A DNA stretch of 64,000 nt from positions 19,201,546 to 19,265,545 of the forward strand of contig JASCQW010000162.1 of NCBI GenBank assembly GCA_030264375.1, in the 5' to 3' direction. The DNA comes from Carcharhinus longimanus. Lineage: Eukaryota. Of the stretch, positions 1,880 to 64,000 are shown piece after piece. Both the position numbers and the translations under genes were made by a program. Numbering within the stretch: position 1 is the first letter of the stretch; each line of letters opens with the position of its first letter. Below the pieces are notes generated by a model. That model did not search any database and was not told the DNA's origin. It was given only the letters and a program-made list of their open reading frames with translations.

Positions 1880-3398
1880 GAGAACACACGGCGCGGGCTG
1901 TGCGAATAGTAATGAATGGCGGCGACATCTCTCCTTTACTACGTTGCGCAGCCAGGGGGGACTCGCTCGCTTATCTAAGGAGAGGCAAGGCAGTGAGTGA
2001 GTGGACAAGGGGAGTGGGAGTGAGTGAGAGTCTGGAGAGGAACCCAGCCTGGGAGAAGAGGTGGGGGGTAGAGGGTAGGGGGCGGCGGGGGGGTGGGTGA
2101 GGAGGGGGAAAGAGGAGGAATGATTGACACCTTATCCAGGGGGGAGAGAGAAGAGGGGGGGGCAGGAGGAGGCAACAACATTCCAAAATAGAACGTAAAC
2201 AAGAGAGTCGGCGGCCAATGATCGGCGGGGGACGGGAGGGGGGGCGGGGTCGTGGGGGGGGGGGGGNNNNNNNNNNNNNNNNNNNNNNNNNNNNNNNNNN
2301 NNNNNNNNNNNNNNNNNNNNNNNNNNNNNNNNNNNNNNNNNNNNNNNNNNNNNNNNNNNNNNNNNNGGGGTGAGGGGGGGGTGAGGTCGGAGGGGAAGGC
2401 CTCCGCATGGACACCTTGTCCAAAGACCACACTCCGGGCACTGCAGCACCGGGGTGGGGGGGGGGGGCGGCGGGAGGGAGGATTGAAGATTCCCGTGTGG
2501 GGATAACACGTCTTTTTATGTTTGGAGTGTGTTGCCCCCCACCTCCCCCCCACCCCCCCACCACCACCGCCCCAATCCCACGCAGAGAAACTCTCACCCA
2601 CCTTATTTTTTTAAAATTTTAAACACTTGGTTCCTTCAAGCTGCCTCCCGTTGGGGGCGTCTTTATCTGGGAGCCTACCGCGGGACGGGCAGAGGATCCA
2701 GTTAGCAGCAGTTGCTTTGCGATGCCACCTCTTAATGTCTGCCATCTTGGCACCGGTGGCATCGAGCGAATGCTATAGTCTGCAGCGTTTCATTTGTGCG
2801 TCGATTTTTTTTGTGTGTGTGTGTTTTTCTTTCCACTCTTGTGCGTCGCAAGCCTTAGTGGCCTGGCTGGCACAGGTTTGCCAAGGCGCTGTAGGGTAAC
2901 TAATGTATTTGATCTGATGGTGGGTGCAGGTGGCACGAGAGATGGTATGCAGGAGCTAATCAGGTTTGCCAGTGCCATCTGTCAGTGCCAGAACATCTGC
3001 TGTGAAGGTGACCCTGTCGCCCTTTGTTAAAGTTATGAGTTTGGCATTTATATCAGCGACACCAGCGCAGATAGCAGGCAGCGTGGAAGAGAGGGGGGGG
3101 GTTTGAGGAGGGGGGGAGTAGAGTTTTTTTTACTCACATCGGGCTGCGCGCTTCTTGTGGCTGGGTTATTGGAGGCGGAAAAATTAACAGGCGGTTTTTC
3201 CAAATATATATATATTTACATTAATAAGGAGAACTCGGTAAAAGTCGCCCCGAGTGTGTGGGTTTTTTTAAAAAAACAATTTCTTTCTCTCCGTCGTTCG
3301 GAGGTTTTTTTATTTGTTTTGTAATTTAATTTAATTTTTTCTCTGTCAGGGTTGTCCGCTCTCTCTCTCTCTCTCTCTGTGTCTCCTCACACGGCACG
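1880..3398 (+). promoter_or_regulatory. IRS1 promoter, CpG-island region and long 5'UTR
   Basis: GC- and CpG-rich with G-runs. Contains GTAAACAA (FOXO element) at 2195-2202, CCAAT at 2215-2219 and a GC box GGGGCGGGG at ~2241-2249, all directly upstream of the IRS1 ATG. The TSS cannot be fixed from sequence alone. Confidence 0.6.
3359..3378. repeat. (CT)n microsatellite in the 5'UTR
   Basis: A run of about 10 CT units about 20 nt before the ATG. Confidence 0.9.
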
Positions 3399-6300
3399 AT
3401 GGCGAGTCCGCCTGAGCCCAGCTCGCCGAGCGCCGACAGCTNNNNNNNNNNACAGCTTCTCGGACGTGCGGAAGGTGGGCTACCTGCGAAAGCCCAAGAG
3501 CATGCACCGGCGCTTCTTCGTGCTGCGGGCGGCCAGCGAGCTGGGTCCGGCCCGTCTCGAGTACTACGAGAACGAGAAGAAATGGAGGCACAAGGCGGGC
3601 GCTCCCAAGCGCTCGGTGCAGCTGGAGAGCTGCTTCAACATCAACAAGCGGGCCGACTCCAAGAACAAGCACCTGGTGGCCCTCTACACCCGCGACGAGT
3701 ACTTCGCCGTGGCGGCCGAGTGCGAGAGCGAGCAGGAGGGCTGGTACCAGGCGCTGCTGGAGCTGCACAACCGCGNNNNNNNNNNNNNNNNNNNNNNNNN
3801 NNNNNNNNNNNNNNNNNNNNNNNNNNNNNNNNNNNNNNNNNNNNNNNNNNNNNNNNNNNNNNNNNNNNNNNNNNNNNNNNNNNNNNNNNNNNNNNNNNNN
3901 NNNNNNNNNNNNNNNNNNNNNNNNNNNNNNNNNNNNNNNNNNNNNNNNNNNNNNNNNNNNNNNNNNNNNNNNNNNNNNNNNNNNNNNNNNNNNNNNNNNN
4001 NNNNNNNNNNNNNNNNNNNNNNNNNNNNNNNNNNNNNNNNNNNNNNNNNNNNNNNNNNNNNNNNNNNNNNNNNNNNNNNNNNNNNNNNNNNNNNNNNNNN
4101 NNNNNNNNNNNNNNNNNNNNNNNNNNNNNNNNNNNNNNNNNNNNNNNNNNNNNNNNNNNNNNNNNNNNNNNNNNNNNNNNNNNNNNNNNNNNNNNNNNNN
4201 NNNNNNNNNNNNNNNNNNNNNNNNNNNNNNNNNNNNNNNNNNNNNNNNNNNNNNNNNNNNNNNNNNNNNNNNNNNNNNNNNNNNNNNNNNNNNNNNNNNN
4301 NNNNNNNNNNNNNNNNNNNNNNNNNNNNNNNNNNNNNNNNNNNNNNNNNNNNNNNNNNNNNNNNNNNNNNNNNNNNNNNNNNNNNNNNNNNNNNNNNNNN
4401 NNNNNNNNNNNNNNNNNNNNNNNNNNNNNNNNNNNNNNNNNNNNNNNNNNNNNNNNNNNNNNNNNNNNNNNNNNNNNNNNNNNNNNNNNNNNNNNNNNNN
4501 NNNNNNNNNNNNNNNNNNNNNNNNNNNNNNNNNNNNNNNNNNNNNNNNNNNNGGGGAGGCGGTGGAGGAGGAGGAGGAGGAAGCGGCGGCTGCCGCCTGC
4601 ACCCGCCCCTCAATCACAGCCGCTCCATCCCCATGCCGTCCACACACTGCTCGCCGTCGGCCACCAGCCCCGTCAGCTTGTCCTCCAGCAGCACCAGCGG
4701 CCACGGATCCACCTCGGACAGCCTGTTCCCCCGCCGCTCCAGCGCCTCCATCTCCGGCTCCCCCAGTGACGGGGGCTTCATCTCCTCGGACGAGTATGGA
4801 TCCAGCCCTTGTGATTTCAGGAATTCCTTCAGAAGTGTCACTCCAGATTCCTTGGGGCACACTCCTCCAGCAAGGGAGGAACAGGAGTTAAATAATTACA
4901 TCTACATGGGCAAACACTCGAGCCTGGCTCCCAATTGTCAGAACAGGGGAACTCAAAGGTGGACCCCTACTAAAGCTGAAGATGCAGACTCAGATAAAGG
5001 GTTCAGGAAGCGAGCTCATTCATCAGGTACTTCGCCACCCACAGTGATGCACCAAAAGACGCCATCTCAAACTTCCACTGCCTCCTTTGAGGAGTACACA
5101 GAGATGACACCCTCTTACCCCAGCAACCGTCTGTCGTCCAGTAAAAATTCTGCTTTTGTACCTACACGTTCGTACCCCGAGGAGTGTTTGGATCTGCAAA
5201 TTGGGGAAGGCAGGCGTTACAGCCAAATGGATGATGGTTATATGCCCATGTCACCTGGAGTAGCCCCTGTGCCCAGTAAAAATGACTACATGCCAATGAG
5301 CCCTAAAAGTGTTTCTGCCCCCCAGCAGATTATTAACCCGCGCCAGCACTCTCGAAAAGATGGTTATATGATGATGTCACCCAGTGGCAGTTGCTCACCA
5401 GAAAATGTGAATTATGGAAAAATATGGACTAATGGAGGGAATTCTAAGCTGTCTGTTGAGAGCAATGATGGGAAATTGTCCTGTAGCGATTATATAAATA
5501 TGTCCCCTGCAAGTTGCTCAACAACAAGCACTCCACCAGACTGCTTCTTCAATCCAGTTGAAGAACCTCATAAACCTGTTTGTTCGTACTTCTCATTGCC
5601 TCGCTCCTTTAAACATGTACATAGAAAAAATGATGAGTCCCCTTTACGAATTGCTGTAAATTCAGGCCGCCTCTTGTATGGTGAGGATTCTTCTTCATCC
5701 ACAAGCAGCGATAGTTTAGGAGGACAGGATGGCGGGCATCATACAGTTAACCCCGTTAAAAAAGAATTGTATGTACCAATGAAAGGTAAACTTGTGCGGC
5801 CCACTAGGCTATCACTTGATAATACTAAGGCAAGTACGCTGCCCAGAACACGAGAGCATCCCCTTCCTCCAGAGCCAAAAAGCCCAGGCGAATATGTAAA
5901 TATTGAATTCAATGACAAAACCTTTTCTTCTAGTTCATTGTCTCTTGTTGAGTCCTCTTCAGTTGGAGGCATTCATCCTGTTCAACAAAGGCCACCCATG
6001 TCTGAATACATGAATATGAATTTAAGAATAGATGCATCCAAGTTTGGCTATGTATCAAAACCCACAGTGGACATCACCAGCTCTGCAACTGCCTGCAAAT
6101 CCAGCACTTGCAGAAAAGATAGAGGGCAGTCGAGCTGTGATTATGTTAGTATGCAGCTAGTTACCACCTGCCCAGACTTACTGGATTCATCAGTGAGTAA
6201 CTATACGGAAATGACAGTTGGTGGAGGTATAACGTCTTCCATTTCCGTTCTACCTCGGGCAGAAGAGAGCTCTTTGAGCACTGTTTCTGATGTTGTGACT

Positions 6301-6752
6301 GGTCCAATGATCGACCAGATCCCTGGGAGGAGTGCCTTTACCGTGCTTAATCTTGTCCCCAATCGGAACCAAGGTGCCAAAGTTATCCGTGTTGATCCTC
6401 AAGGAAGAAGAAGACATAGTTCAGAGACTTTCACTTCCACAGCCAATGTGACTGGCATGACATTATCTTATGTTGATCACATTAAACGACAAACCAGGAG
6501 AGTCTCTGGCTTCAAGTGCCAAAGACCAGCCAAATGATGCCACAGTGCAGAAAAATGATTGTGAAAATGGTATGAATTATATCGATTTGGACTTGGTAAA
6601 TGATTTTAATAACAAAGACTGGACCTCCTCTCAGCATGTAACCGCTCATCAACCTCATGGAAGTACTTCTGGTGGTGATGATGATCTGAATTCATATGCA
6701 AGCATTACCTTCCAGAAGCCAGATGAAATCAGTAAGCCTACAGAAAGGGAAG
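3399..6752 (+). CDS. IRS1: Insulin receptor substrate 1, coding exon 1 (10-N gap shifts the frame at 3442-3451; PTB domain lies in the N gap 3776-4552; +1 frameshift at ~6490)
   Basis: ATG 3399 is in a strong Kozak context (ACGATGG) and begins MASPPE. The PH domain FSDVRKVGYLRKPKSMHRRFFVLRAASE...WYQALLELHNR is nearly identical to mammalian IRS1. Further IRS1 hallmarks are RLHPPLNHSRSIPMP...GSPSDGGFISSDEYGSSP, PI3K motifs YMPM/YMPM/YMMM, the Grb2 motif PKSPGEYVNIEF and RRRHSSETF. The +1 frame continues with NYIDLDL and YASITFQK (SHP2 motifs). Donor AG|GTAAGG lies at 6752/6753. Confidence 0.97.
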
Positions 6753-7359
6753 GTAAGGACACAGATCAAAATGCTAATAGTCATTTTGCTAATATTTTAC
6801 TTCACAAATAATGTTTTGTTCCTTATCTAGCATTCAGAATTCCATGTTTCGCCCATTCTATATGTGAGGACACACATATTTATGGTAGAATTTTAGCTGC
6901 TGAAGTTGCTTTATTACCCAAAATTTGTGATTTCTTGTAAAAATTTGAAAACTTGATTGAATAATTAATGAAATTAAGTTTGTTGAAAATGTAGAATTTT
7001 CAGATAACCATACAGAGTATCTAAAGCTTTACTTACAGTTTTAGTAAGATCACCCCTTGTCCAATCTTTGAAAGTTTGCGCAGTTTCATTTGAATGGATG
7101 AGCCTAGTTGGAGGTTGTATTTCATCATCGTCGGCATCCTTTCTTCTATGTAAGACGTGCAAGCATCAGACTCAATTGGGGTTGGGGCATAGTAGCTTCG
7201 TATGGTGCACTTTTGCTAATGGCTGAAGATCCCTATGGGGCTGGTCCTGCCACAAGTGCCACATCAAATGGTTATCAGGTGCTGCTGTGGGCTGTTTTTG
7301 GTGTTCACACCGGATATTAAGCCACTGTAGCCACAAGTCATCATGGTGACCCATGCCGG

Positions 7360-14339: not shown

Positions 14340-14936
14340 TTGGACAAGAGAGATTCCAGGATGCCATGTTGCCTCCCTGATGCTAGGATCAAGGATGTCT
14401 TGGAGTGGTTGCAGGATATTCTAAAAGAGGAGAGTAAACAGCCAGCTGTTGTGGTACACGTTGGTACAAACAACATGGGTCTTGAAAAAAGGAATGAGGT
14501 CCTAAAAGCAGCACTTAGGTGTGGAGAAATTCCTTCATCCAGAGAGTGAACCTGTGGAATTCACTACTGCAGAAAGTAGTTGAGACCAAAATGTTGTGTG
14601 ATTTTAAGAAGAAATTAGATATAGCTTTTGGCTCCAGGGATCAAGGGATTGGGCCGCAGGGGGGGTGGGGGGGGGGGGGCGTCAGTAGTNNNNNNNNNNN
14701 NNNNNNNNNNNNNNNNNNNNNNNNNNNNNNNNNNNNNNNNNNNNNNNNNNNNNNNNNNNNNNNNNNNNNNNNNNNNNNNNNNNNNNNNNGTAGTTCTTGG
14801 CTACAGGGATCAAGGGATATTGGGGGGGGCGGGGGTCAAGGTCTTGAATTTGATGATTAGCCAGGATCATAATGAATAGTGGAGCAGGCTCAGAGGCTGA
14901 CTGGCCTACTTTTTTTTTCTATGCATGTTTTTATGT
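14340..14936 (+). mobile_element. Internally deleted CR1 LINE (ORF1 esterase-like fragment joined to the 3' end)
   Basis: CCLPDARIKDVLEWLQDIL..QPAVVVHVGTNNM is a CR1 ORF1 SGNH-like motif. It is followed directly by RNSFIQRVNLWNSL and a CR1 tail. An N gap lies inside. Confidence 0.75.
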
Positions 14937-62565: not shown

Positions 62566-63387
62566 CGGTGCATGCTCTAACTGTATATCCTCACTATAAG
62601 TTACCCCACTTAGGACATTGTTCTTTAATGTCCTTCACTGTTTTAGCTTTTTTTGTTTGATGTTGCCATTTTCAATTATAAGTCATCTGCACTCTACCTC
62701 CTCACCCCCACCTCGTGCTGCATACTGGGCTAACTACCATCATATTCAGGGGCTGGTGCTGCTGCCACAGTCATCCGAAGCCCACGCTTTGGGGAGAGTG
62801 AGGCGTGCGATTCAAGAGCAGGAGTGCAGGCAGGGATGGGAAACTGCCACTGTTAGTTATGTAATGACCGAGACATTGGGAAAGGAGGAAGAGCGATGCA
62901 GAGTGGGAGGGACAGCTGGAAGGGGAAAGGTGGGGGGGATGGGGGGCGAAAGGGAATGTGAGAGTGGAAGAGGGAGGTTCAGGAGTGCTGCGGGTGAGAC
63001 TCAGAAACTGTGCTGCACAGGGCTCGTTTCGGGCAGAAAATTAAGTTAAGGACATAGTCGGGTCAGCCACAATTCTGTTGAATGGCCTAGTCCTTTTTTT
63101 TATGTATTGTTATGAAAATGCAGTTGTGTACTTTGGAAAGCACTGTATAAAAAAAATTAATGACATTCATTTGCTAATAATGCTGGTTCTTGAAAGGCAA
63201 GGTTAAAAAGATTTCACTTTTTCATTCTCAGTGTTTCNNNNNNNNNNNNNNNNNNNNNNNNNNNNNNNNNNNNNNNNNNNNNNNNNNNNNNNNNNNNNNN
63301 NNNNNNNNNNNNNNNNNNNNNNNNNNNNNNNNNNNNNTCAGTGTTTCACGTAGATGTGCATAACTTTGATTATATGTAACTTATAAA

Positions 63388-63624: not shown

Positions 63625-63629
63625 AATGA
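63625..63629 (+). CDS. IRS1: IRS1 exon 2 coding bases (complete the final Glu codon and the TGA stop)
   Basis: Exon 1 ends ...AGG GAA G| and exon 2 begins |AA TGA, giving a C-terminus of ...KPTEREE*. Confidence 0.8.
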
Positions 63630-64000
63630 CATCTCCTTAATCCTCGGCAAGCTTTGCACGGACTTGATGAGTACCTAGGCTTTCAATAATTTGTACAGTA
63701 CAACTAGGACCTCATGCTCTTTCACATAAAGAATGGTACGACAGATCAAAATCACTCCAGTTAGCTGCAAAAAAACCTCAGGACATAATTTTCTGACTGG
63801 ATTGCATTTTCGCCCATGTATATGTCAGTGAGGTGCACAGTGTGCGCTGCGACACATGCACTACAGCGAATCTGCCTTTCTTCCCTCATCAGCACATTCT
63901 ACTTCAACAATCTCCGTAAACAGAAATGGAAAGACTGCCAGCAATGCAATTCAGATGCCTAACCTGGACTGGAAACACACAAGCATTAACCTTGACTTTC
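63630..64000 (+). other. IRS1: IRS1 exon 2, 3'UTR (continues beyond the window)
   Basis: Non-repetitive sequence after the acceptor. It contains CAACTAGGACCTCAT and ATGGTACGA, blocks I recall from the proximal 3'UTR of mammalian IRS1. Confidence 0.8.

Follow-up and report, generated by a model that had tools for sequence, protein, structure and literature searches.

The window, i.e. the whole 64,000-nt stretch of the Carcharhinus longimanus draft assembly analysed here, is filled by the IRS1 gene, so that the Rhbdd1, Col4a and Nyap2 neighbours expected of an IRS1 orthologue would lie outside it. We searched proteins with main-frame residues 620-1055 as query and found that the large coding exon of the window is closest to chondrichthyan IRS1, with identities of 82-95% to elasmobranch IRS1 versus 43-46% to chondrichthyan IRS2. 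Judged by these matches the gene is IRS1, as the original prediction had it, and is nearer to IRS1 than to IRS2. Coding exon 1 (3399-6752, plus strand, as are the other parts of the gene below) extends from the ATG at 3399 to a splice donor, and its top matches are chondrichthyan IRS1 proteins. The Pfam search recovered the N-terminal PH domain (PF00169, 3490-3762) with an E-value of 5.2e-08 and 33.8 bits, the cut-off being 25.1. The PTB (IRS) domain is expected after the PH domain, where the draft has a gap of 777 N (3776-4552); its length is frame-preserving, and the span between the flanking motifs comes to 279 codons versus 241-268 in five sharks, i.e. 11-38 codons above the matching stretch. 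Twelve YxxM motifs and one YVNI follow in the main frame (4897-6213), all upstream of the break described below.

Exon 1 is followed by a GT...AG intron of 56,872 nt including gaps (6753-63624) and by exon 2 (63625-64000), which finishes the last Glu codon, supplies the natural stop TGA at 63627-63629 and continues as the 3' UTR. The junction at 6752/6753 is backed by a spliced contig of sequencing run X9 that leaves the window at 6752, and the loose end of this contig matches the window from 63625 onward at 27 of 28 letters, after a polypyrimidine tract and AG. No RNA run is on record among the listed runs carrying the stretch; the label of X9 as RNA is a guess.

The reading frame of exon 1 is broken near its 3' end. 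The main frame, which starts at 3325, reads DHIKR with the R at 6487-6489, continues as the 15 out-of-frame residues QTRRVSGFKCQRPAK (6490-6534) and stops at a premature TGA at 6535-6537, as given by the ORF translation. The +1 frame reads KPGESL...NYIDLDL...YASITFQK from 6491 and represents the true C-terminal tail (6491-6752), with the SHP2-type motifs YIDL (6578) and YASI (6695), which we take to correspond to Y1172/Y1222, where SHP2 docks. There is no N in 6478-6500, which reads ...ATT AAA CGA C AAA CCA GGA G, and the tblastn match of Mustelus IRS1 passes from frame 1 (4570-6495) to frame 2 (6488-6751) at the break. The premature stop lies 215 nt before the end of the exon. The original prediction had described a frameshift without an N gap, a stop soon after DHIKR about 215 nt upstream of the exon junction, and an open, conserved downstream frame that leaves both SHP2-type tyrosine motifs out of frame, and all of these points are borne out.

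The closest cluster member is IRS1 of Mustelus asterias (XP_078062305.1, P0121), with 98.8% identity, a similarity that points to a carcharhiniform shark. The window agrees with it at 107/107 residues in the PH part, at 632/640 upstream and at 86/87 downstream of the break, and, with exon 2 supplying the last residue's codon, it ends in EREE as Mustelus and the other orthologues do. The two differ in that the PTB region of the window is N, hence unsequenced, and in that the window is without 35 nt (Mustelus residues 1015-1026), which shifts the frame. After the break the lone difference from Mustelus is E for D at 6500, a position at which the relatives are not listed as differing.

An alignment with other chondrichthyan IRS1 proteins had been proposed as a check, and in it KR and K[PS]G are separated by the 12 residues HSSVSFENVWLN in 27 of 27 rows from 22 species. 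Left out of these 27 are one gappy Rhincodon gene model (P0132), in which the region is absent through a longer skip, and six Logan ray fragments, in which the HSSVSFENVWLN motif is present. Twelve residues without a counterpart, minus one nucleotide (36-1), give a loss of 35 nt, one codon more than the ~32 nt estimated earlier from mammalian IRS1. At the breakpoint (6489-6491) the window has a single ACA, where relatives have two copies of ACA 35 nt apart. If 35-nt deletions were placed at random in this exon, only 3.6% would be expected to show microhomology of at least 3 nt; that found here suits template switching in the library and real slippage equally well. The site has a GC content of 0.40 (6400-6599), and we found no long repeat there, only short repeats at chance level.

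We found no further lesion or decay in the tail, the splice sites or the natural stop. None of the proteins recovered by our searches (30-1155 residues searched) carries the aberrant tail; the 8 + 1 matches all cover the part before the break only, and a PDB sequence search with the tail gave no match. Two ways of reading through the break were rejected. Rescue by splicing does not apply, as there is no GT at 6485-6495, the one donor-like site in 6001-6560 is at 6191, and the relatives' 35 nt are present in DNA-type contigs; programmed frameshifting is ruled out since the 12 invariant codons are physically absent.

Twenty of the 24 listed sequencing runs, all stored as contigs, carry the stretch, and four of them (X1, X2, X6 and X9) were aligned to 5000-7050. 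Three runs, X2, X6 and X9 (studies P2, P3 and P6), have contigs that jump back from 6491 to 6489 across an identical insert of 32 letters, which gives the 35 nt directly: there are 35 extra nt between two ACA copies and, read by eye, they encode HSSVSFENVWLN in frame. Their other letters differing from the window number 8, 10 and 5, respectively, with identities of about 99.5-99.7%; in addition, X2 has a single gap of 2 nt, which lies within the intron. The organism codes of X6 and X9 differ from that of X1, while X2 has no code. The joint of the window is found in none of the four aligned runs, three being intact and X1 having no coverage of the site. The original prediction had held that reads with an insert restoring the missing segment would mark the break as an assembly artefact; such an insert is present in these three close relatives, whereas X1, possibly the source sample, has no contig over the site.

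Run X1 is identical to the window wherever it covers it (1,954 letters in three own-locus contigs, no differences, 0.93 of words), and it may be the source sample and hence not independent. Its contigs leave a hole between 6484 and 6524, where they stop and start again, and a further one at 5728-5785, a stretch over which the window and the other runs agree; the two holes explain the share of words (0.934 expected). Contig ends at 6491 and 6489, as a clean heterozygous bubble would give, were not seen in X1. Words seen only once are dropped in such contigs, according to the part of PMC12424806 consulted, and the records are filtered, so we set the hole of X1 aside as evidence. We also set aside a joint from 5321 to 6379 and an A>G change at 6411, which come from short and less similar pieces of another contig and were read as a paralogue.

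The draft itself is gappy, with 18 N gaps in the window, two of them inside exon 1. The smaller of these two is a 10-N gap (3442-3451) whose sides repeat the same 6 nt (exact overlap 6), with 16 nt added. With its repeated flanks it occupies 3436-3457, just after the start codon, and it plainly gives this exon another frameshift, an artificial one; the orthologues are continuous across the site (MASPPEPSSPSADSFSDVRK in Mustelus). End overlaps of 5, 6 and 10 nt were left unmerged at 3 of the 18 gaps, with a chance expectation of 0.3% per gap. The other two are 100-N gaps (14690-14789 and 63238-63337) whose flanks overlap by 5 and 10 nt, respectively, and which probably have zero true length. 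The unmerged overlaps can be read in two directions: they show that the joins of this draft cannot be relied on, yet its overlaps are marked with N and not merged. As the pipeline marks overlaps of 5-10 nt with N, simple merging on 3 nt does not suggest itself as the mechanism of the loss.

The original prediction allowed for a lesion that is very recent, heterozygous or an assembly error. This choice was rightly drawn, and the evidence favours the last of the three. We consider it likely that the 35-nt loss is an assembly or library artefact and that the animal carries a normal IRS1, a weight given because of the state of the draft and the constraint on the gene; our weighting of this and of the two readings below is a judgement and was not computed. 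The draft would have dropped 35 nt at the 3-nt microhomology (ACA), and we infer that sequence support was thin here and that either a mis-join or one deletion-bearing library molecule determined the consensus. The intact IRS1 would function normally, docking through its PH and PTB domains on the insulin or IGF receptor, recruiting PI3K by its YxxM motifs and SHP2 by YIDL and YASI. In favour of an artefact are the 35 nt in three near-identical runs, the absence of the window's joint from all four aligned runs, the motif in 27 of 27 rows and the second false frameshift in the exon, as are the undecayed tail and an aberrant tail that is in no protein returned. Against it, the joint has no N, a 3-nt merge is not the habit of this assembly, and no read or contig of the sequenced individual was seen to cross the site. 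The 3-nt microhomology is as compatible with real slippage or end-joining, and the site is neither GC-rich nor endowed with a long repeat, unlike the typical error sites in the portion of PMC9516821 consulted.

Documented errors of vertebrate draft assemblies include a class of false frameshifts (PMC9516821, in part). The likeness to the cases presented there is that a conserved gene is broken in a gappy draft, with gaps falling in the gene's GC-rich 5' part, while relatives have it intact. The difference is that the frameshift class in that part of the source consists of indels below 10 bp with a GC-rich 5' bias, confirmed by reads, whereas the window has lost 35 nt at 40% GC, unconfirmed by the animal's own reads.

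An alternative, which we hold to be rather unlikely, is a real, private loss-of-function allele, most likely heterozygous, that slippage at the two ACA copies, or their microhomology-mediated end joining, would have produced and whose haplotype the assembler emitted. The clean joint in ordinary, unique sequence without N and the 3-nt microhomology are what such an event would leave, and an undecayed tail is expected if the allele is young, but the joint is absent from all four aligned runs and the same exon has one demonstrable assembly frameshift. Heterozygous IRS1 nulls are viable, as the mouse (PMC13138160) and human (PMC10985017) accounts, each in part, indicate; however, the strong conservation of IRS1 in cartilaginous fish implies that such alleles should be rare. 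The transcript would be either degraded by NMD, its stop lying 215 nt before the last junction, or translated into an IRS1 with all PI3K motifs and without the SHP2 docking sites.

A fixed truncation or loss of IRS1 at the species level, removing SHP2 feedback or the whole gene, is highly improbable: the three intact runs may come from a species other than that of the window, and other fish lineages have lost Irs1 (PMC5482937, in part), but relatives at 99.5-99.7% identity are intact and leave little time, neither tail nor donor nor acceptor has a second lesion or decay, the new tail is in no protein among those searched, and mice homozygous for Irs1 S57X die around birth (PMC13138160, in part). 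We would likewise give very little credence to the idea that one carcharhiniform species has recently fixed an NMD-escaping IRS1 with every PI3K motif and no SHP2 docking sites.

If the frameshift were real, the protein would keep the 12 YxxM motifs and YVNI and drop the SHP2-docking tail. Degradation of the transcript by NMD is expected under the 50-55-nt rule, and long exons weaken NMD. The original prediction had called the allele a likely NMD target; this is plausible, but it is not assured in a very long exon. In a human IRS1 frameshift case the authors state, in the part of the report consulted, that the variant is not subject to NMD (PMC10985017).

The claim that an S6K/Akt-type serine site is lost was overstated. 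The documented S6K1 site on IRS1 is Ser1101 (PMC10814773, in part). Opossum IRS1 (1243 aa) has RRRHSS at 1094-1099 and KRHSS at 1138-1142, and by this numbering Ser1101 is most likely the RRRHSS retained in the window at 6406-6423. The equivalent of Ser1101 thus appears to be kept upstream of the break, while the missing KRHSS, which is indeed gone, is probably a different, second basophilic site. Our literature search for the motif context of Ser1101/Ser1143 found nothing.

Two known mammalian variants, human p.His598Alafs*13 and mouse Irs1 S57X, resemble a heterozygous version of the window's break in being heterozygous premature stops in the single large coding exon, as far as the parts of PMC10985017 and PMC13138160 consulted go. 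The human frameshift was heterozygous in two insulin-resistant relatives, a father and his son, whereas in mice heterozygous for S57X, which is lethal around birth in homozygotes, weight and blood values were no different (same sources, in part). Both variants remove most PI3K motifs, whereas in the window's version all 12 YxxM would survive and the loss would be confined to the SHP2-docking tail, i.e. the equivalents of Y1172/Y1222, sites at which SHP2 is described as attenuating insulin signalling in the part of PMC8191236 consulted.

The break is most likely not a real biological feature, and only a fixed truncation would be notable. As an artefact it would serve as a caution: the draft would give a false loss of IRS1 in comparative screens, and even its ungapped sequence can be wrong. 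A private heterozygous allele would count as a rare loss-of-function variant of an ordinary kind. What would make a fixed truncation notable is the dampening of insulin signalling that PMC8191236 (in part) ascribes to SHP2 bound at the pair of C-terminal tyrosines, and that we found no report of IRS1 loss or frameshift in a shark in the largely open-access literature searched; if true, it would be an experiment of nature showing how IRS1 signals when SHP2 feedback is gone. According to the part of PMC5482937 consulted, some bony fish have lost Irs1, and the gene is present in the elephant shark.

Three minor features were also observed in the window. A run of about nine glycines followed by SGG lies at 4555-4587, ahead of CRLHPPLNHSRS; Mustelus has seven glycines there and catsharks and lamniform sharks two, and by this comparison the tract seems to have expanded in this lineage. 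Upstream of the gene, a tandem repeat of ~40 nt (1700-1960) gives repetitive ORFs on both strands. An extra Lys (VQKND, 6548-6553) is common only to the window and Mustelus among 26 aligned rows, and is a possible clade marker.
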